Assembly: GCA_965209035.1 (NCBI GenBank)
Contig: OZ242372.1
Coordinates: 992,001 to 1,056,000 of the forward strand
Direction: 5' to 3'
DNA length: 64,000 nt
From: Gammaproteobacteria bacterium
GTDB taxonomy: Bacteria > Pseudomonadota > Gammaproteobacteria > CBDBNL01 > JAAOII01
The notes beneath the pieces are model-generated. The model searched no databases and was not told the DNA's origin. It saw only the letters and a program-made list of their open reading frames with translations. The position numbers and the translations under genes were made by a program. Shown here in pieces: positions 8,113 through 30,897 of the stretch; within the stretch, counting starts at the first letter, position 1; each line of letters begins with the position of its first letter.

Positions 8113-10659
8113 ATGTCCGTTCTGTCTTCCAATTCCGCCGAGTTTTCGCCGATGATGCGGCATTATTTGCACATCAAAAAAGAGCATCCGGACACCTTGC
8201 TCTTTTATAGGATGGGTGATTTCTACGAACTCTTTTTTGAAGATGCGAAAAAGGCGGCAAGGTTGTTGGACATCACGCTGACGGCACGCGGCAAAAAGAA
8301 CGACATGCCGATCCCGATGGCGGGCGTTCCCTTTCACGCCGCCGATTCCTATATCGGCAAACTCCTGAAAATTGGAGAATCCGTCGTCATCTGCGAGCAA
8401 ATCGGCCGGCAACGCCAAGGCGATCCGGTGGAGCGTCGGGTAACACGCATCATCACACCCGGCACGGCAACCGAGGAATCCTTCACCGAAGAGACGCGCG
8501 ACTATCAAGCGGGCGCGCTGGTATTTGGCGCGCGCGGTTACGGCCTCGCATGGCTTAACCTTTCGAACGGCGAGTTTCGTATGCAAATCTTGGAAAGCAA
8601 CCAAAGTTTACAAAACGAATTGGGCAGGTTAAACATCACCGAATTGTTAATTAGCAAGGACGAAAAAAATTGGAGCGGGGCCGCCCGCTATGTCCGCGCC
8701 TATGATGCCCGGCATTTTGAAGAAAAAGAGGCACTCGCTTTGCTGCACAAACAATTCGGCGAGGACTGGCTGGTGCGGCAACGGGCGGATACACACGTTC
8801 TGCCGGCATTGCGGGCGGCGGGAGCCCTGCTTTCTTATGCGCTGGCGACGCAACTTAATACCCTGCAACATGTGAAGCCGCCGCAAATAACCGCCGAAGA
8901 AGAAGCCGTCATCATAGACCCGGTGAGTCGCCGACATCTCGCCATAGACGACAATGAGGATAGCCAAAAAATATCGCTGTTCGGGCTGATGAACAGCTGT
9001 GTCACACCCATGGGGTCCCGCCTGTTGCGGCGAGAATTGCATCGCCCGATTCGCAACATAGACTTACTCGGCGGCCGCCAACTGGCAATCGGCGAACTGA
9101 TGAAAAGCAAGATGTTTGATTCTGTCCGACCGATTCTGGCAAAGACCGGTGACCTGGAGCGTTCCCTCGCGCGCATCTCAGTGCGCACCGCCAGACCGGG
9201 CGATCTGCTGCGGGTGCGACGCGCCCTGGCGACAATTACGGAACTGCAGTCCGTCCCCGATTTTGAAACACCGGTGCTGCGGCGACTGAGCGATTCGCTG
9301 CAACCCTTTGATACCCTCAGCGAACTGTTGGGGCGCGCCATATTGGAACAACCGGCGGCGCACCTGCGCGACGGCGGTGTCATTGCATCCGGGTATGACA
9401 AGGAGCTGGACGAACAACGCGCTTTGCAAACCAACAGCGGGGAGTTTCTAACAAGAATGGAGGCGGAAGAAAAACAGCGGACCGGTCTGAGTTCCCTGAA
9501 GATCGGCTACAATCGGGCGTTTGGCTATTACATAGAAATCAGCAGTGGCCAAGCAAAAAACGCGCCGAGCGATTACATCCGCCGCCAAACTTTGAAAAAT
9601 GCGGAAAGATACATCACACCTCAGTTGAAACTGCACGAAGATAAGATTCTTGGCAGTCGCAGTCGCTCTCTCGCACGGGAAAAGTTTTTATATGAACAGA
9701 TTTTGGACAAACTCAACGCCGAGATGCGCCGCCTGCAAACCATCGCCAAGGCCTTGGCTGTGCTGGACTTTCTGTGTTGTCTCGCCGAGCGAGCGCATCT
9801 GCTCGGCTGGAACAAACCACAACTGCACCTGGCGCATTCTCTGATGATTGAAGATGGCCGCCATCCTCTGGTGGAAGAATACTCGGACCAGCCCTTCATC
9901 GCCAACGATCTTCTTTTGGATAACAAACAAAATATGCTCATCATCACGGGGCCGAATATGGGCGGAAAATCCACCTACATGCGCCAGACCGCATTGATTG
10001 TATTACTCGCGTACATCGGCAGTTATGTGCCGGCCAAGAAGGCGGAGATCGGCAGAGTAGACCGCATCTTCACACGCATCGGCGCCGGCGATGACCTGGC
10101 GTCCGGCAGTTCCACTTTTATGACCGAAATGACCGAGACCGCTCATATTCTCAAGACGGCAACCGCGGACAGTTTAATTTTGATGGACGAAATCGGGCGC
10201 GGCACCGGCACCTATGACGGTCTGTCTCTTGCTTGGGCATGTGCCGATCACATCAGTCGCTCCTTGCATGCCTACGCGATGTTTTCCACTCATTACTTTG
10301 AACTCACCGCCATTGCCAAGGAGTTACCGGGAACGGCAAATGTCCACCTGGCGGCAAAAGAGCATGCCGGCGGTATTGTCTTCTTATATAAGATAAGAAC
10401 CGGGCCCGCCAGTCGCAGTTACGGGCTGCAGGTGGCGCGTCTCGCCGGCGTCCCGCAACCGGTCATAGAACACGCCCAAAAAATTCTGGACGAGTTACAA
10501 CAGGCGGAAAGAAAACAAATCCCGACCGAGCAACCAATCCCCCAAACTTCTCTCTTTGACGAGGACCCGCTGCGACGCAACCTACAAAAAATAGAACCCG
10601 ACAACCTGAGCCCGAAGGACGCGCTGGCGGAAATATACAAACTGCGGGACCTGCTCTGA
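8113..10659 (+). CDS. mutS: DNA mismatch repair protein MutS
   Basis: [11 protein letters not shown], Walker [31 protein letters not shown]. Confidence 0.99.
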
Positions 10660-17246: not shown

Positions 17247-17714
17247 CTAAGTCGCCGCAGCATGCGTAAGGCTCGCCAGCACTTCGGCCGCATGTCCCGG
17301 CACCTTGACCTTACGCCATTCTTTGGTTAAAATTCCGCCGGCTGCCAGCAAAAAAGTGCTTCTTTCTATGCCACGCACCTTCTTTCCGTACATATTCTTA
17401 TCCCGCATCACATCAAACAATCCGCACAGTTCTTCCTTCGGGTCGGCGATCAACGGGAACGGCAATTCCAACTTTTTGGCAAACTTATGGTGTGATGCCA
17501 ATGTGTCGCGCGAGATGCCGAACACACGCACTCCTTTGTCAAGAAACTCCCCGTGAAGATCGCGAAAATCCTCGTTCTCGCGGGTGCAACCGGAAGTATT
17601 GTCACGCGGATAAAAAAAGAGTACCAAAACCCTGTCCGTATTCTCCGCCAAAGAAAAGACCCCTGCGGTAGATTCGGCGGAAAATTGCGGAACAGCGGAA
17701 CCCATCTTAACCAT
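17247..17714 (-). CDS. bcp: Peroxiredoxin Bcp
   Basis: FYPRDNTSGCTRE, GISRD, ERSTFL, KVKVPGHA. Confidence 0.93.
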   Translation of the reverse strand: MVKMGSAVPQFSAESTAGVFSLAENTDRVLVLFFYPRDNTSGCTRENEDFRDLHGEFLDKGVRVFGISRDTLASHHKFAKKLELPFPLIADPKEELCGLFDVMRDKNMYGKKVRGIERSTFLLAAGGILTKEWRKVKVPGHAAEVLASLTHAAAT

Positions 17715-18200
17715 TACGATTAAAGCGTTGCAACCGCCGGCAATTCCCGCATAACCCGGCAGGCACCAAAAGCAGTTTGTTATACATATGTTTTATTGAT
17801 CATTCATCTTTCATTATTAAAAAAAATTAAAAAAGCGGGGATATATTAACGCATCCGGTATGCCCAAATATATAAAATCCTATTCAAAGAAAAAACGACC
17901 ACCGGCAAGTAACCACCTCTTTTATTTTACCGATTATTATACACAAACGCATTTTATGTGAATGTGAATGTGAATTGGTCCGCCCACCCCGTCCTGCGCC
18001 CGGGCCCGGGAACTCCATAAAAGGAGGCGAATCTGACAGGAATCCAAGCGGCGATTGGGGTAATTGGGTTTAGGTAGTTAGGTAGTTTAGGCGGTTTAGA
18101 GTGAGTGGGCAGGCAGTCGCTTGGCTTCCCGCCTCCGCAAAAAACCTCCCTGTTTTTTTCCAAACAGAAAAGGGCTGTCTTACTGTTCCCTCTTCCCGGC

Positions 18201-18469
18201 CTACCTGCCTTGGGCTGTGAGTCCGCCCGGCATCAAGCTGACCGCTTCATCCGCAGGCCGGCATTAACAAAGACTGCAGTGAGCGGCGATACAATCCGCT
18301 CGGCAACCGCCCGCCAAATAACATTCACATTATTAACATTAAAGGAAGGGTTGATAGAAAGATAAAAATTTGGAATATCATTACGAACGCCCTGTGCCGA
18401 TGCCGGGCGGGGCAGTCGGCCGCGTGTTCCTCTCGCCGACCGAACCGATAAAAAGTGTAGTTGATTCAT
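18201..18469 (-). pseudogene. Internally deleted remnant of a GLUG-lipoprotein family gene (leader joined to the last 10 codons)
   Basis: The 5' part matches the leader of 28639..30897 (TTTTTAtCGGTTCGGtCGGCGAGAGGAACAcGCgGCCGaCTG). 18233-18201 reads MPGGLTAQGR*, matching the family C-terminus MPGGLSAQGR*. Confidence 0.85.
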
Positions 18470-18526
18470 CTCTTGTTTTATTTAATTGTAGTTATGTATT
18501 TTTATAAAAGAATTTCGTATCCTTTA

Positions 18527-18548
18527 ATTATAAACCTATTTCCAAAGC
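18527..18548 (-). promoter_or_regulatory. Family promoter motif (YTTTGKAAAT-N6-TATAAT) of the remnant locus
   Basis: CTTTGGAAAT-AGGTTT-TATAAT ~58 bp before the ATG at 18469; same spacing as at 24772 and 35052. Confidence 0.65.
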
Positions 18549-18677
18549 CTTTCTGAAATTATGCAAAATGCGCATTTGCGTCAAACCCCAAATAATCATT
18601 TTAAAGTTGCCTGTTCTTGCCGCAAATTTTTGGAATATTCCATTGTGTTGATGCAAAACCGTAAAAACGGATAGCCC

Positions 18678-19265
18678 TCACAAAAACAGCAACCCAATGG
18701 ACAGAACCAACAAGGATGCCATCGCCCAATTAAACACAGCCAGCGCGCGCGGTGATTGAAGATAACGCCGCAGAAAAAACCCGAGAGATGTCCAAAAGAA
18801 CAATCCGGGAATAATGACAACAACAAAGACCGCGGCAATAGACAAGGCATTCCACAAGTAAAACCAACCGGGATTACCAAACCAGGCGAAGACCGATATA
18901 CTCATCGCCCAGGCCTTAACATTCAAATATTGGAACAAGAATGCTTCGTAGAATCGCAAGGGTTGCTTCATTTTGTCCTCGGTGGCAACTCGACCCGCCC
19001 GAACGATTCTGTATGCGATGAACAAAATATAAAAAGCGCCACACCACCGCAACAAAGGAAAAAGAGCGGGATGATTTTGAAAAATGGAACCCAGGCCGCT
19101 ACCCACAAGAATGAGTATGGAAAAAACACCTGACAGAATGCCGGCGATATGTGGCAGTGTTCGCCGTAAGCCAAAATTGGTGCCGGATGCCATCAACATA
19201 ATGTTATTTGGCCCCGGCGTGCCGCCGGCAACAAAGGCGAACAGGGCAAGAGCAAGGAAGTTCAT
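18678..19265 (-). CDS. LysE family translocator
   Basis: TPGPNNIMLMASG.NFG.RRTLPH, FQYLNVKAW. Confidence 0.92.
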   Translation of the reverse strand: MNFLALALFAFVAGGTPGPNNIMLMASGTNFGLRRTLPHIAGILSGVFSILILVGSGLGSIFQNHPALFPLLRWCGAFYILFIAYRIVRAGRVATEDKMKQPLRFYEAFLFQYLNVKAWAMSISVFAWFGNPGWFYLWNALSIAAVFVVVIIPGLFFWTSLGFFLRRYLQSPRALAVFNWAMASLLVLSIGLLFL

Positions 19266-19833
19266 TCCAACTATTTTAGACCATTTAACGGGTCTGTTCT
19301 ATCCCCGGATAATCCTTGTATAATCTCCGCCCCGTCCGCCGGAACCGCTGGCTCTTTGATCTGAGAACGCACAATGAATGCACAATGAATGCCAAACTCA
19401 GCGTCCAAAACCTTGCCGAGATCATGCATGCACCTGTCCAAGATTTTCGCCCCCAAAGATCCGATATCCGATTGGGGATCTCTTCCAACTTTCTCATCTC
19501 TCTCATATCCCTCATATCCCCCTTATATAAGTATCTTATATAGAGACCACAGACACCTTGGCGAACATCCGAACATCCGGCAAGGCAAATATTGCCAACG
19601 AACTTATAAGCGACAAGTTAATCGGTAACTTAAACGGCAATTTAAGCGACCGGGTGATTAAGAACATCGGAAAAATAGGATACAAACGCGGCGACTTGAT
19701 ATAAAATACTTTCAATACAAATTGAAAATAGTCCTCCATATGAAACCTTTTATTGTAATTTTTTTGCAAACCTTTAATAAAAAAACATCGCCACCGGGTA
19801 TGTCTCTTCTCCAAATCACCCGGGGCAATTTGT

Positions 19834-24771: not shown

Positions 24772-24793
24772 TTTTGTAAATTGGTGTTATAAT
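24772..24793 (+). promoter_or_regulatory. Putative promoter (TTTTGTAAAT-N6-TATAAT, with extended -10 TG) of GLUG lipoprotein 1
   Basis: TGtTATAAT at 24785-24793; motif shared with two paralogous loci. Confidence 0.65.
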
Positions 24794-24853
24794 TAACCTT
24801 ATGGAATTTTTTTCTCAATTCAAAATTAACAACTATTAACTATTAAATCAGCC

Positions 24854-27800
24854 GTGATGCATAAGTTTAACTTTTTATCGGTTCGGCCGGCTTATTTTTT
24901 GACAAGCATGTTGGCTTTGCTTCTTGCCGGTTGTGCCGTCGGCGGTGGCAGCTCCGGTGTAGCGGACAGCTGCTCGTTTATCAACAATTCGACACAAAAT
25001 GATAACGATCTGGATGGGTTCACAGATTCTTGTGATGTGGATGACAATAATAACGGCCTGATAGAAATCCGCACTTTGGATGACTTGGCGCGGCTGCGCG
25101 ATGACCTAGATGGTAATGGGACAGACGATGGCAATATTGACGAGATTACCGCCGTGGGTTCCATTGGTTGCCCGCCTGCCGGTTGTGTCGGTTATGAGTT
25201 AACCCGCTCGTTGAATTTTAGCCTGGCCGCATCTTACAAGGAGAACAGCGGCAACCGCGCTGTTTGGACGAGTGGCAGTGGTTGGCAGCCGATCGGCTCC
25301 TGTTCCGGTCCGGATAATTGCACCGCTTGGACGGGTGTGTTTGATGGCGGGGGTTATACTCTTACCGGTCTGTTTGTCTCTGCGGATAATCGCACTTTCG
25401 GTGTGGGCTTGTTTGGTGCGTTCGCCGGTCGTCTTCAAAATCTGCATCTCCGGGATGCGAGCGTCAATGGCGGTGCCCTTTATGTGGGCTCGCTGGCAGG
25501 CTATGGCGGGAATGCCGGTTATGAGTATCTGTCGGTTACGGCTAGCCGTGTAATGAGCCCGTCGGCCGGCTATGTGGGCGGACTGATTGGGGACGGTCGC
25601 AATGCGAATATTCGCTATGCGAATGTATCCGGCACGGATGTTGCCGGGGATTCTGATGTTGGCGGCCTGGTTGGATTGGGTTACGCGGCGGACATTCGCT
25701 ATGCTCGTACTTCCGGCGGAAGTGTTGCGGGAAATCGCAGCCGGGTTGGCGGACTGGTCGGGGTTGGTCTGGATGCGGATATTCGCGATGCTTATGTGTC
25801 CGGCACAAATGTTTCCGGGAGGAATGAGGTTGGCGGCCTGGTCGGGGTTGGAGAGGAGGCGGATATTCGCAATGCTTATGTGTCCGGCACAGATGTTGCC
25901 GGGAGGAATGATGTTGGCGGCCTGGTCGGGGTTGGTCGGGAGGCAGATATTCGCAATGCTTATGCCTACGGCGGAAGCGTTACCGGAAATCGCAGGGTTG
26001 GCGGCCTGGTCGGGCACGGGTCCCTTGCGACTATTCGTTATTCCTATGCGGCCACCGGTCCTGTTTCCGCTAACCGCAGTGGCGGTGGCTTGATTGGTTC
26101 CGTCTATCTCGGGGCACCCGCAGTCACAGATTCCTATTGGGATAATCAAACCACCGGGCAGCCGTCCGGCGGCGTCGGCAGTGGCAGCGGGCAAACCACT
26201 TTTCAACTACAGTACCCGACCGGGTTCACCGGCATTTACGAGTCCTGGGGCAATCTTTGGTGCAACCCGGCCACCGGCGAGCAAAGGACAAATTCTTCCC
26301 AACCGTCCGGATTTGTGCCTGTCTGGGATCTTGGCAGGAATTTCCAATACCCCGTTTTGAACTGCCTTCCCGTCAGTGCGGAACAGCAGCGGCAAAACCA
26401 TGTTCAAGACCCGAACCAAGACCAAGACCTGGATAATATCCCGAATGAGGCGGATGCTTGTCCGACCGGTGTGACCGGCTGGACTTCTACGGGAGACACG
26501 GATGCTGACGGCGATGGTTGTCGTGACAGCGATGAAGATGCATTCCCAACAGACGCATGTGCGAACATCGACACGGATAATGACAACCAACCGGACAGGC
26601 TCGTCGCCGGTTGTGCTACCGACCTAACCGAAGATACGGACGATGACAATGATAGTCTGGCGGATGAGGCGGATGCCTGTCCGGCCGGTGTGACCGGCTG
26701 GAATTCCACGGACAGCAATCTTGATTCCGACGCGGACGGTTGTCGTGACAGCGATGAGGACCGGGATGACGACAATAACGGATTGATGGAAATTGACAAT
26801 TTGGACGAGTTAGCCCTGTTGCGCGATGATCTGCACGGCGAAGGCAGAGACAGTGAGGGTAATCTTGCAACCAGAGGCTGTCCGCAGTCCGGTTGTCTGG
26901 GTTACGAATTGACCCGCTCGCTCGATTTTGAAGAATCGAGTTCCTATGCTACCGGCAGTGCAAATATGGATGCATGGACAATGGACGACCTGGGTGGCTG
27001 GACGCCGATCGGTTCCTGTTCTGCCGGCAGTAGTTCACAGGCTGATGATTGCGTGTCCTATACGGGAATATTTGACGGCAATCACTATGATATTGACCAT
27101 CTTAGAATTTCCGCGGATGATGATACGAACGGAGTCGGTTTGTTTGGTGCTGTGACGGGTACTATTCAAAACTTGGATCTGTTGAATGTGTTTGTCGGCG
27201 GAGGCGCCAATGCTGTTGGTATGCTGGCGGGCTATGGTTCCGGCGCTCGTTTTCAAAATATCAGCGCGACGGGAAGAGTGGATAGCCCCGGGGCACGAAG
27301 CGTCGGCGGGCTGGTTGGTTTTGGGGAAAGGGTGACTATTCGTGATTCCGATGTGTCCGTGTTTAGAAACTCTGTTCTTGGTTCCGGTAGTATCGGCGGG
27401 CTGGTCGGGCATGGATCCTTTGTGACTATTCGTGATTCCCATGTGTCCGGGTCGAACAAAAATACTCGATCTGTTCACGGTCGCGGCAATGCCGGCGGAC
27501 TGATCGGGTTTGGGCCCTCTGCAACAATTCGCGATTCCCGGGTGACCAATGCGGAGATTAGCGGCACCGGAAGTGGCGGCGGACTGATCGGGTATGGGCC
27601 CTTTGCAACGATTCGTGATTCCCGTGTGTCCGACGTGGGTATTAGAGGAGGATTCGTTGGCGGGGGGCTGATCGGGTCCGGGTCCTCTGCGAATATTAGT
27701 TATTCCAATGTATCCGGAGACACCTTCGATCATTCTCGTATATCTTTCAGCAATGATATTGAGGGTGCGATTGCCGGCGGTTTGGTCGGGCTTGGATCCT

Positions 27801-28567
27801 TTGCGACGATTCGCTCTTCTCATGCATCCGCCATTTTATTTATCGGGCGTGATGGTATTGGCGGTTTGGTCGGGCTTGGGACCTCTGCGACGATTCGCTA
27901 TGCTTATGCATCCAACAGCATGATTGGCGTCGGTGATCAAAGAAATTGTGAATGTGAGGTGACTGGCGGACTGATCGGGTACGGTCGACATGCGGATATT
28001 CGCTATGCTTATGTGTCCGGTCTCAATAACTTAGGGAAGATTGATGTCGGCGGACTGGTTGGGTCCGGTCGGAATGTGACGATTCGTTATGCTTATGTGT
28101 CCGGCGGCAGTGTTGAGGGGAGTAATCGTGATGAGGAAGGTAATAGTATTAATGGCAGTGTTGGCGGCCTGGTCGGGGATGGGTCCAACGGTCAAGTGCA
28201 TTATTCTTATGCCGCCGCCGGGCGTGTTTCAGGTGCCCGGAATGCCGGCGGCTTGATAGGCTTTGCCGGCTTTGCCGAGAATCAAACCATCGTCACTAAT
28301 TCTTATTGGGATAATCAAACCACCGAGCAGGCAACCAGTGGCGGTGATCTGGGTAATGGTCAGACCACGACAGAATTACAATCGCCGACTAGTTTCACCG
28401 GCATCTATGCATCTTGGGGTAACTTCTGGTGCAACCCGAATACCGGCGAGGAAAGGACGAGTTCTTCCCGGCCGACCGGCTTCGATCCTGTCTGGGATCT
28501 TGGCAGTAGCACGCAATACCCCGCTCTGAACTGCATGCCGGGCGGCCTCTCGGCACAAGGCAGATAG
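24854..28567 (+). CDS. Large surface lipoprotein with two GLUG-repeat modules and TSP3-like DxDxDG Ca-binding repeats
   Basis: Lipobox LLLAGC; 'DDNNNGLIEI..LD.L..LRDDL' caps twice; many VGGLVG repeats; DxDxDG..D..D.CP repeats; C-terminal YPALNCMPGGLSAQGR. Confidence 0.85.
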   Translation: MMHKFNFLSVRPAYFLTSMLALLLAGCAVGGGSSGVADSCSFINNSTQNDNDLDGFTDSCDVDDNNNGLIEIRTLDDLARLRDDLDGNGTDDGNIDEITAVGSIGCPPAGCVGYELTRSLNFSLAASYKENSGNRAVWTSGSGWQPIGSCSGPDNCTAWTGVFDGGGYTLTGLFVSADNRTFGVGLFGAFAGRLQNLHLRDASVNGGALYVGSLAGYGGNAGYEYLSVTASRVMSPSAGYVGGLIGDGRNANIRYANVSGTDVAGDSDVGGLVGLGYAADIRYARTSGGSVAGNRSRVGGLVGVGLDADIRDAYVSGTNVSGRNEVGGLVGVGEEADIRNAYVSGTDVAGRNDVGGLVGVGREADIRNAYAYGGSVTGNRRVGGLVGHGSLATIRYSYAATGPVSANRSGGGLIGSVYLGAPAVTDSYWDNQTTGQPSGGVGSGSGQTTFQLQYPTGFTGIYESWGNLWCNPATGEQRTNSSQPSGFVPVWDLGRNFQYPVLNCLPVSAEQQRQNHVQDPNQDQDLDNIPNEADACPTGVTGWTSTGDTDADGDGCRDSDEDAFPTDACANIDTDNDNQPDRLVAGCATDLTEDTDDDNDSLADEADACPAGVTGWNSTDSNLDSDADGCRDSDEDRDDDNNGLMEIDNLDELALLRDDLHGEGRDSEGNLATRGCPQSGCLGYELTRSLDFEESSSYATGSANMDAWTMDDLGGWTPIGSCSAGSSSQADDCVSYTGIFDGNHYDIDHLRISADDDTNGVGLFGAVTGTIQNLDLLNVFVGGGANAVGMLAGYGSGARFQNISATGRVDSPGARSVGGLVGFGERVTIRDSDVSVFRNSVLGSGSIGGLVGHGSFVTIRDSHVSGSNKNTRSVHGRGNAGGLIGFGPSATIRDSRVTNAEISGTGSGGGLIGYGPFATIRDSRVSDVGIRGGFVGGGLIGSGSSANISYSNVSGDTFDHSRISFSNDIEGAIAGGLVGLGSFATIRSSHASAILFIGRDGIGGLVGLGTSATIRYAYASNSMIGVGDQRNCECEVTGGLIGYGRHADIRYAYVSGLNNLGKIDVGGLVGSGRNVTIRYAYVSGGSVEGSNRDEEGNSINGSVGGLVGDGSNGQVHYSYAAAGRVSGARNAGGLIGFAGFAENQTIVTNSYWDNQTTEQATSGGDLGNGQTTTELQSPTSFTGIYASWGNFWCNPNTGEERTSSSRPTGFDPVWDLGSSTQYPALNCMPGGLSAQGR

Positions 28568-28638: not shown

Positions 28639-30897
28639 ATGATGATCAATAAGTTTGTTTTTTACCGGTTCGGCCGGCGAGAGGAACATGCAGCCGGCTG
28701 TCACGCCCGGATGTCCAAGTCTAATCCTATTCCAAATACTCGGATCTCGTCCGGCGATGCCATGCGGGTTACCGGGCGATTTATATTGCCGCTAATGGTA
28801 GTCTCCGGTTCTTTGCGGCGACCGAAACGGTTGGCTTCTTTTTACGCTGTTTTGCTGACAGGCATGCTGGCTTTGCTTCTTGCCGGTTGTGGCGGCGGTG
28901 GTGGCGGCAGCGGCGGTGACGGCGGCAGTCCCAAAGTAGCGGATAATTGTCCGACAGTTGACAATCCGGAGCAAGAGGATAACGATACGGATGGGTTCGG
29001 TGATGCCTGTGATGCGGATGACAATAATAACGGCTTGATAGAAATTCGCACTCTGGATGAGTTGGCTCGTCTGCGCGACGATCTGAATGGCGACGGAACA
29101 GATGATGGCAATATTGACGAGATTACTGCCGTAGGTTCTGATGGTTGCCCGAGTTCCGGCTGCTTGGGTTATGAGTTGACCCGCTCGTTGAGTTTTAGTC
29201 TGGCGGCATCTTATGAGGTGAACAGTAGTAATCCGGCTGTCTGGACGAGCGGCGGCGGTTGGGAGCCGATTGGCTTCTGCTCTGTTTTGAATTTTTCCGG
29301 GGATGGTTGCGGCAACATTTACACGGGTGTGTTTGATGGCGGGGGTTATACTATTGCCGATCTGTTTGTCAATGCAAGTGATGATGCGATTGGAGTGGGA
29401 TTGTTTGGCGCGTTCGCAGGTCGTCTGCAAAATCTGCATCTCCGGGATGCGCACGTCAGTGGCGGTGACCGTTATGTGGGATCACTGGTGGGCTATGGCG
29501 CGGATGCCAATTATGAAAATCTGTCGGTTACGGATGGCAAGGTGATTGTGACGAGTTTGCTCTTCTCCTCCTACGGCGTGGGCGGACTGGTCGGCCATGG
29601 CAAGGATGCCCGCTTTGAGAGTGTGTCGGTTATCGGTGGCAATGTGATGAGTCCGTTTGCCAGCGGTGTGGGCGGGCTGGTCGGGGATGGGACCGGATCT
29701 AATATGAGTGATGCTTATGCTTCCGACGGAAATGTTTCCGGCAATAATTTTGTTGGCGGACTGATTGGGGTTGGAGAGGACACCGATATTCGCTATGCTT
29801 ATGCATCCGGCGGAAGTGTTGCCGGGAGTGGTTTTATTGGCGGAACCGGCGGACTGGTCGGGGTTGGTCTCAATGCGACGATTCGCTATGCGAATGTATC
29901 CGGCGTAACCGTTGCCGGGGTTGATCATGTTGGCGGGTTGGTCGGAGATGGGCCGAATGCGGATATTCGCCGGACGAATGTATCCGACGTAATGGTTGCC
30001 GGGGATGATCATGTTGGCGGACTGGTTGGGAACGGGCCGGATGCCAATATGAGTGATGTTCATGCTTTCGGCGGAAGTGTTGAAGGAAGAAATCATAGGG
30101 TTGGCGGACTGGTCGGGTATGGGCGGAATACGACGATTCGCTTTGCTTCCGCATCCAACGGAAGTGTTGCCGGAGATAACGATGTTGGCGGACTGGTTGG
30201 ATATGGTCAGTATGCGGATATTCGCTATGCTTATGCATCCAACGGAAGTGTTGCCGGACTAGGTAATAGGATTGGCGGACTGGTCGGGTTGGGGTCCTAT
30301 GCTAATATTCGCTCCGCCTATGTGTTCGGCACAGATATTTCCGGCACGGCAGATAGCAATGATGTTGGCGGACTGGTTGGGTTTGGTCTCGAGGCGGACA
30401 TTCGCTTTGCTTATGCATCCGGCGGAAGAGTTGCCGGACAACGTAATAGGGTTGGCGGACTGGTTGGATCTATTCGCGAACAGTCTAGCCTGGGACTGAT
30501 CCGGGTCCGGGACCCGGTCCGAGGCGGTCAAATTCATTATTCTTATGCCGCCACCGGGCCTGTTTCAGGTTCCGGTAGGCGTGTTGGCGGCTTGATAGGC
30601 CACACCGATGATCAAACCATCGTCAATGCCACCTATTGGGATACTCAAACCACCGGTCTTTCAACCAGTGACGGTGACTTGGGTCAGGGTAATAGCACGA
30701 CAGAATTACGATCGCCAACCGGCTTCACGGGGATCTATGCACCTTGGAGCAACTTCTGGTGCAACCCCGACACCGGCGAGGAAAGGGAAACTTCTACCCA
30801 ACCGACCGGCTTCGTTCGTATCTGGAGTATTGGCAGTAGTTCTCAATACCCGGCTCTGAACTGCATGCCGGGCGGTCTCTCGGTGCAACGCAGGTAG
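28639..30897 (+). CDS. GLUG-repeat surface lipoprotein, paralogue 2 (long leader; start uncertain)
   Basis: LLLAGC lipobox, Gly linker, DNCP..DNP.Q.D.D.DG.GDACD (TSP3-like), VGGLVG repeats, same C-terminus. Confidence 0.85.
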   Translation: MMINKFVFYRFGRREEHAAGCHARMSKSNPIPNTRISSGDAMRVTGRFILPLMVVSGSLRRPKRLASFYAVLLTGMLALLLAGCGGGGGGSGGDGGSPKVADNCPTVDNPEQEDNDTDGFGDACDADDNNNGLIEIRTLDELARLRDDLNGDGTDDGNIDEITAVGSDGCPSSGCLGYELTRSLSFSLAASYEVNSSNPAVWTSGGGWEPIGFCSVLNFSGDGCGNIYTGVFDGGGYTIADLFVNASDDAIGVGLFGAFAGRLQNLHLRDAHVSGGDRYVGSLVGYGADANYENLSVTDGKVIVTSLLFSSYGVGGLVGHGKDARFESVSVIGGNVMSPFASGVGGLVGDGTGSNMSDAYASDGNVSGNNFVGGLIGVGEDTDIRYAYASGGSVAGSGFIGGTGGLVGVGLNATIRYANVSGVTVAGVDHVGGLVGDGPNADIRRTNVSDVMVAGDDHVGGLVGNGPDANMSDVHAFGGSVEGRNHRVGGLVGYGRNTTIRFASASNGSVAGDNDVGGLVGYGQYADIRYAYASNGSVAGLGNRIGGLVGLGSYANIRSAYVFGTDISGTADSNDVGGLVGFGLEADIRFAYASGGRVAGQRNRVGGLVGSIREQSSLGLIRVRDPVRGGQIHYSYAATGPVSGSGRRVGGLIGHTDDQTIVNATYWDTQTTGLSTSDGDLGQGNSTTELRSPTGFTGIYAPWSNFWCNPDTGEERETSTQPTGFVRIWSIGSSSQYPALNCMPGGLSVQRR

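Follow-up and report, generated by a model that had tools for sequence, protein, structure and literature searches.

A probable internal-deletion remnant of a GLUG-motif lipoprotein gene in a gammaproteobacterial genome

We found that the gap between a LysE-type translocator gene and bcp in this genome is filled, on the minus strand (18546-18201), by the conserved upstream block of a large lipoprotein family, a leader ORF of 78 codons and then the last 10 codons and stop of the same family, and we consider a one-off internal deletion in a full-length family member to be the probable origin of this arrangement. Positions without a prefix are those of the window, the whole stretch of 64,000 nucleotides that was analyzed (GenBank assembly GCA_965209035.1, contig OZ242372.1, positions 992,001 to 1,056,000). 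The empty locus observed by the initial annotation is confirmed as real, and its description, of a promoter and leader running straight into the family C-terminus, was accurate apart from the reading frame. On its 3' side the remnant continues into a family 3'-flank motif and then a terminator-like hairpin, so that the locus and its neighbors comprise the following features.

17247..17714, minus strand: bcp (AhpC/TSA peroxiredoxin), flank; Pfam PF00578, E=8.6e-30
18135..18172, minus strand: terminator-like hairpin (18172-18145), 11 pairs, then a T run; weak evidence on its own
18180..18200, minus strand: family 3'-flank motif, one unit, GGCCGG.AAGAGGGAA; compared with paralogues 1202767, 1204983, 1207362 and 734058
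18201..18233, minus strand: family C-terminus MPGGLTAQGR and TAG; +1 frame with respect to the leader ORF
18231..18238, minus strand: deletion joint ...TCAGCT / TG / ATGCC..., placed by alignment with paralogues
18233..18469, minus strand: leader ORF, 78 codons and TGA; family N-terminal extension and the first five residues, MKRSA, of a probable signal peptide
18370..18405, minus strand: leader stretch of 36 nt that recurs in the solitary unit U1 (35/36)
18470..18546, minus strand: conserved family upstream block with a TATAAT box; leader profile match 18238-18546
18678..19265, minus strand: LysE-type translocator gene, flank; Pfam PF01810, E=4.4e-13

Two family ends without an interior

Both ends of the remnant are recognizable as parts of the family at the DNA level. 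Used as a single nhmmer query, the remnant locus matches 32 other places in the 2.24-Mb genome (E<=1e-3), and after two nhmmer rounds the leader copies number 35. Pairwise alignment with the leader of the paralogue at 28639..30897 shows conserved blocks as far as ...AACGGT..GCTT, just as the initial annotation had written. The leader ORF starts at the ATG at 18469, begins MNQLHFLSVRSARGTRG and runs to RIVSPLTAVFVNAGLRMKRSA, its last residues being RMKRSA; it contains no hydrophobic core, no Cys and no lipobox (L-x-[AGS]-C). The family promoter motif that had been read upstream of it stands as a conserved block (consensus of 35 copies, 'ttg.aaat....ttataat') with TATAAT at 18532-18527, approximately 60 nt 5' of the leader ATG, but a sigma-70 consensus scan called no promoter there, which we ascribe to a weak -35; the block is a putative promoter. 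At the other end of the locus, the hairpin is the single terminator-like site found in the region, as compared to 1.8 expected in shuffled sequence.

The tail (18233-18201, ATG CCG GGC GGA CTC ACA GCC CAA GGC AGG TAG) is identical to the best paralogue ends at 28/33 nt and is followed by the family 3'-flank motif, as in the paralogues. The ends of 55 family genes were made into a DNA profile, which matches 18196-18237 (profile positions 111-152; E=0.0049 genome-wide), beginning 1 nt past the end of the leader match. By arithmetic from the profile search, chance tail matches so near one of the 35 leader ends are expected at approximately 4e-6. The jump to the family C-terminus is thus upheld by the nucleotide identity, by the profile and by the position immediately after the leader. 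Between the two ends nothing of the gene is left: when 17600-19300 was compared by blastx with 55 family proteins, only leader residues (approximately 3-69) and the last 14 residues matched, the latter with 10/14 final amino acids, and there was no match to the interior with its GLUG repeats (PF07581). Consistent with this, Pfam recognizes no family in the ORF of 78 aa, and the two paralogues within the window both give the GLUG motif PF07581. Missing from the remnant are the signal-peptide core, the lipobox, the beta-helix and, except for its last 10 codons, the conserved C-terminal domain (which ends QYPALNC-PGGL-AQGR*); the codons that remain are out of frame with the leader. The absence of the interior, lipobox included, and the identification of the flanking genes as bcp and LysE therefore agree with what had been read from the sequence at the outset.

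The family to which these ends belong is large and lineage-restricted. A strict C-terminal motif, [YF]P[VAL][LI].C.PGG, occurs in 55 distinct ORFs of the genome, and a 199-aa C-terminal region has 125 matches in it, 63-108 in each of three complete genomes from its bacterial family and 9 in a fourth that is 72% complete; GLUG lipoproteins of this kind were present in 4/4 genomes of that family and in 0/26 others of the class or order. A narrow literature search found no description of a GLUG-motif lipoprotein family. Several leader classes exist, combined with different interiors. In leaders of the remnant's class, a conserved ATG opens a frame that runs uninterrupted over 60-90 residues as far as RRMKR, and on through a brief Arg/Leu-rich repeat and a hydrophobic segment to the lipobox LAGC; across the 35 copies, conservation within the leader is highest in the first ~60 nt. 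Three copies (C1:1471299, 1575239 and 1579962) begin out of frame past a proline/poly-C stretch.

Most members (e.g., 28639-28890) carry 60-90 residues ahead of the lipoprotein signal peptide; the frame is conserved, a stop closely precedes the ATG, and no DNA of the gene is better conserved than the first ~60 nt. This N-terminal extension has no match in Pfam and may be an undescribed extended pre-sequence or a regulatory leader. In the gene at 24854-28567 (plus strand; leader 24772-24891), only the first third of the leader profile is matched and the protein begins MHKFNFLSVRPAYFLTSMLALLLAGC; the middle of the extension has been lost in frame and what remains is a signal peptide of normal length, an indication that the extension can be dispensed with.

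The joint in the family, in reads and in relatives

In the remnant, homology with paralogue leaders stops at GCT and homology with paralogue tails starts at ATG. Past ...ATGAA(A/G)CGG, the paralogues read nnn-(G/T)CTCGTTTG and then conserved signal-peptide DNA (in protein, RMKR-(S/L/P)..RLARLGRLV...LLAGC), and just 5' of the tail they read AA(C/T)TGC-ATGCCGGGCGG. The remnant reads CGGTCAGCT-TG-ATGCCGGGCGG, with the Cys codon reduced to TG, and one further base would be needed for leader and tail to be fused in frame. The TGA of the leader ORF overlaps the ATG of the tail, which lies in the +1 frame, and the clean fusion of leader and tail that had been proposed does not hold. No repeat tract is present at the joint, and its ambiguity, or the sequence shared by the two ends, amounts to at most 2-3 nt. 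The paralogues stay alignable across CTCGTTTG, the hydrophobic core and CTTGCCGGTTGTGG; both breakpoints therefore fall within conserved sequence, and not at borders between constant and variable parts. On the tail side, the breakpoint lies 33 nt before the stop, inside the conserved end of the gene, and of the C-terminal DNA profile of approximately 165 nt the last ~40 nt are left and about 130 nt are lost.

We then counted full and empty loci, as the initial annotation had proposed, and the joint proved unique among the 35 leaders. The distance from the leader to the next tail on the same strand is 1 nt here and 1365-9291 nt for the other 34/35, and there is no second empty locus among these class A/C leaders. 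For class B, all matches of the leader model that cover the leader proper are at least 1224 nt away from a tail; this model also caught an unrelated dispersed repeat (136 matches), and its count is not a gene count. Thirty of the 35 leaders run into ORFs of at least 675 aa, the five exceptions being the remnant, a 95-nt leader fragment at C1:723585 and three genes whose frame is broken and whose interior is present (C1:738418, 1364651 and 1473427). Leaderless C-terminal pieces occur at C1:1074705 and 1075560. Each of these damaged copies has a different lesion; decay and rearrangement are thus common in the family, and the joint of the remnant is one of a kind. The two leaderless pieces lie back to back (C1:1074705-1076094), a minus-strand ORF of 274 aa beside a plus-strand ORF of 353 aa, a pair that looks like the product of inversion or recombination between family members. 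A short ORF at C1:770061 (...CGPGGLCGRH), considered as a second empty locus, was rejected: no leader-like DNA lies 5' of it, it is absent from the leader-profile matches, and it ends at a poly-A-rich intergenic repeat.

The stretch occurs in four sequencing runs, none of them an RNA run. In run X1, a 6864-nt contig covers the whole of it with 0 differences; in X3, a 474-nt contig covers 17933-18406 with 0 differences; and in X4, which comes from another sample and another study, a 6393-nt contig covers 16700-18898, again with 0 differences. X1 and X3 represent one sample, possibly the source of the assembly, and X4 a second. The read depth at the joint equals that of the flanks. Misassembly, which an absence of reads across the joint would have indicated, was rejected because independent contigs of three runs span the joint without a difference, and the identical empty form is present in two samples. 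No polymorphism between filled and empty forms was seen in these two samples, whose sequences are nearly identical; rare variants are lost from contigs, and a filled form present in a minority of the sampled population would escape a comparison of this kind. Raw reads of X7 come from a second strain, 5-12% divergent and from another sample, under the same organism label. Thirty-nine of its reads were placed, at 88-99% likeness, covering bcp and LysE and leaving 17948-18363 and 18468-18675 uncovered, a gap that is compatible with either sequence divergence or different content. Separately, the spacer between LysE and the methyltransferase gene contains a dispersed repeat of ~100 nt (19328-19432), present in the genome in 60 or more copies that are about 70-90% identical, which accounts for the extra depth and loose read ends at 19388-19429.

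A filled allele between bcp and the LysE gene was not found in the collections searched. Scans anchored on LysE returned 80 loci from genome contigs (best 45% identity) and 80 from metagenome contigs (best 44%), with no close relative in either, and in a DNA search of 30 relatives bcp and gst alone matched, at approximately 66-75% identity. In two genomes of the same bacterial family but another genus (G002 and G003), the methyltransferase gene, bcp and the GST gene follow one another on a single strand, methyltransferase and bcp being 37 nt apart with neither a LysE nor a lipoprotein gene between them; the corresponding region of G001 is without bcp. The adjacency of methyltransferase and bcp in the first two indicates that the LysE and lipoprotein genes are additions in the lineage of the remnant, and that the lipoprotein copy later decayed.

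Solitary repeat-spacer-repeat units

A stretch of the remnant leader recurs elsewhere in the genome, as the insert of a solitary unit in which two direct repeats enclose a single fragment. A genome-wide scan gave three such units in total.

C1:1947803-1947912 (L180:7803-7912), U1: two 37-nt direct repeats, 34/37 identical, around a 36-nt insert
C1:1910207-1910314, U2: 37-nt repeat and a 34-nt insert matching purA at 32/34
C1:1329195-1329299, U3: 35-nt repeat and a 35-nt insert matching an intergenic stretch at 31/34

The insert of U1 (C1:1947840-1947875) matches positions 18370-18405 of the remnant leader at 35/36, the next best of the other 34 leaders reaching 28/36, and loose ends of X1 reads at 18370 and 18405 show U1 repeat sequence. 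Each of the three units resembles its source in the insert alone, the homology ending in U1 exactly at the repeat borders, and each has its own repeat and its own site. The inserts are 34-36 nt long and 91-97% identical to a copy elsewhere in the genome. Derivation of the inserts from a foreign relative rather than from the genome itself was not supported, as, over the three units together, the repeats differ at 3/109 positions and the inserts differ from their in-genome copies at 6/104, which are similar rates. The U1 repeat occurs in 2 copies in the genome only and was not found in 30 relatives, nor, as a 27-nt pattern, in the genome contigs; its surroundings have no Rfam match, and the idea that it forms a strong hairpin was not supported, since it folds no better than shuffled sequence (z = -0.3).

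U1 sits between fxsA and comM, 2.5 kb from a complete type V-A CRISPR-Cas locus. Next to U1, a 72-nt unit is repeated 5.3 times in tandem with 98% likeness (L180:8048-8431), and the 3' end of comM is duplicated (L180:8413-8598 and 8721-8906; 186 nt, 97% identical), a duplication that starts the tandem repeat. The type V-A locus (C1:1950409-1963800; L180:10409 onward) comprises cas12a, cas4, cas1 and 88 repeats, from which 84 spacers were parsed, and with a Cas12a scoring 1070 bits against TIGR04330 the system looks active. Its repeat, of 36 nt, is unrelated to that of U1, and its spacers are 25-33 nt long. One 32-nt spacer matches the chromosome at C1:2062514-2062545 at 32/32, inside a 260-aa ORF, and the 4 nt preceding this match are TATC rather than the TTTV that is the usual V-A PAM. 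The genome (92.7% complete) has a single cas1, and Cas3 (TIGR01587), Cas10/Cmr2 (TIGR02577), Cas6 (PF01881) and Cas9 (TIGR01865) gave no match above cut-off. Membership of U1 in the Cas12a array was rejected, the repeat being different and the distance 2.5 kb, beyond comM. As a CRISPR array in its own right, U1 fits in the lengths of its repeat and spacer (23-55-nt repeats with a spacer of similar length), but further repeats with other spacers were not found and its repeat is not shared with the cas-linked array.

Off-target integration of spacers, giving rise to 'neo-CRISPR' loci, has been described (Nivala et al. 2018, as outlined in bioRxiv 10.1101/148544). U1-U3 resemble the loci outlined there in having two repeats of 35-37 nt, which brackets the V-A repeat length of 36, around a self-derived fragment. 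They differ in the length of their inserts, which at 34-36 nt are longer than the V-A spacers of this genome and than the 27-29 bp given for spacers integrated by the V-A Cas1-Cas2 of F. novicida in a passage of PMC13034035. Going by these likenesses of sequence and length, U1-U3 may be off-target spacer integrations.

Origin of the remnant and its place in the family

The variability of the family invites the alternative, raised in the initial annotation, that the remnant is a vacated expression site, in which leader and tail anchor interiors that are swapped and the slot has been caught empty. The family is large and variable, its 55 ORFs with the C-terminal motif falling into several leader classes with different interiors, some copies carry poly-C frame switches behind the lipobox, and the leader and upstream block of the remnant are intact. 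In cassette antigenic variation, as in pilE/pilS of Neisseria and vlsE/vls of Borrelia, one expression site is served by silent promoterless cassettes. The conserved ends flanking a variable interior in a surface-protein family are shared with those systems, but here 30/35 leaders belong to complete genes that each have an upstream block, which leaves no pool of promoterless cassettes; the breakpoints lie off the constant/variable borders, in conserved sequence, and the signal peptide, the lipobox and most of the C-terminal domain have gone; the two ends are out of frame; and a 33-nt tail is very short for homologous exchange. Moreover, the genome has no second empty site, Pfam finds no recombinase gene among the neighboring genes, and the identical empty form, with no variation, was seen in two samples. 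We thus regard a vacated expression site as extremely unlikely, and cassette exchange is no longer suggested for the family, in which the variation seen so far lies in frame switches, in the diversity of leaders and in the large number of complete genes. The survival of the leader could also mean that the remnant is kept because the leader is itself useful, either as a regulatory RNA or as a small protein; it might, for instance, titrate a factor in control of the leaders that the family shares. In favor of such a use, the leader still has its reading frame of 78 codons, neither the upstream block nor the terminator-like hairpin is damaged, and the first ~60 nt of the leader are its best conserved part across the 35 copies. 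However, the ORF belongs to no Pfam family, Rfam gives no credible match in 17600-18800, and a recent deletion is also compatible with an open frame of 78 codons; we consider retention of this kind very unlikely.

One could also envision that the deletion and the capture of a leader copy in U1 are two footprints of one event. Under such circumstances, a single double-strand break would have been repaired by end joining, giving the deletion, while a piece of the degraded end was captured by an off-target CRISPR-type integrase, or a former CRISPR-type system with a self-matching spacer would have attacked the locus, the survivors carrying the deletion. The closeness of the U1 insert to this leader rather than to any other, with homology ending at the repeat borders, favors a connection, as do the position of the matched stretch only ~130 nt from the joint and an arithmetical chance of approximately 5e-4 that one of three random 36-nt captures would land in the 350-nt locus; the genome, furthermore, has an active-looking V-A system, one spacer of which matches the chromosome in full. 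Against this, the matched stretch survives, so the deletion would not relieve self-targeting. The U1 repeat is unrelated to that of the V-A array in a genome with one cas1 and no other Cas effector above the cut-offs used, the inserts are longer than V-A spacers, and the repeat neither folds well, matches Rfam nor occurs in the 30 relatives or genome contigs. U2 and U3, in addition, copy purA and an intergenic stretch, and the 424-aa frame of purA is open across the part copied in U2. A common event is accordingly unlikely, though it carries somewhat more weight than a leader kept for its own use.

An internal deletion in a full-length family member remains, in our view, the probable explanation. 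The ends are authentic, the interior is absent, the joint is unique and the form is the same in two samples; a unique breakpoint, with no other empty locus and no polymorphism seen, is what the initial annotation itself had equated with ordinary one-off decay. To judge from the paralogues, a full-length gene for a GLUG-motif beta-helix lipoprotein, with a leader of the type ...RMKR-S-RLARLGRLV...LAGC, would once have stood between LysE and bcp, and one internal deletion would have removed it from signal-peptide codon 6 through the 11th-last codon, a loss of approximately 2-2.7 kb if the ancestor resembled the 675-912-aa paralogues with similar leaders. Because the ends share at most 2-3 nt, the deletion was presumably illegitimate (of the microhomology or end-joining type) and not the product of homologous or site-specific recombination. 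With the joint one base short, the leader ORF now stops at the TGA at the joint; the remnant could still be transcribed, yielding a 78-aa peptide without an export signal, and it is presumably incapable of making a lipoprotein or of switching back on.

Three observations sit less easily with this deletion. The leader frame is still open over 78 codons, which counts against an old, unconstrained remnant and points either to a deletion of no great age or to some remaining use of the leader. The exact joint cannot be reconstructed as a simple join, one base being missing from leader plus tail. The 36-nt copy of the same leader in U1 is a coincidence that plain random decay would not predict.

Expanded families of bacterial surface-protein genes hold pseudogene remnants and internal-deletion scars, which likewise keep both ends and lose the body while other copies are broken in other ways. 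The remnant described here is tidier than these, in that the upstream block, leader, stop, 3' motif and hairpin all survive, one base out of frame. Phase-variable lipoprotein families are switched by homopolymer tracts; such switching belongs to the same gene family here, but the remnant is without a tract and has lost approximately 2 kb. The finding suggests that a large, lineage-restricted lipoprotein family loses members by illegitimate deletion, besides gaining them. The solitary units may outweigh the remnant itself: U1-U3 would be rare natural cases of spacers integrated off target, or of a different short-patch capture process. Were the deletion and the capture of the leader indeed one event, which we consider unlikely, the three would stand as natural 'neo-CRISPR' insertions and as a record of past breaks in the genome of a symbiont.
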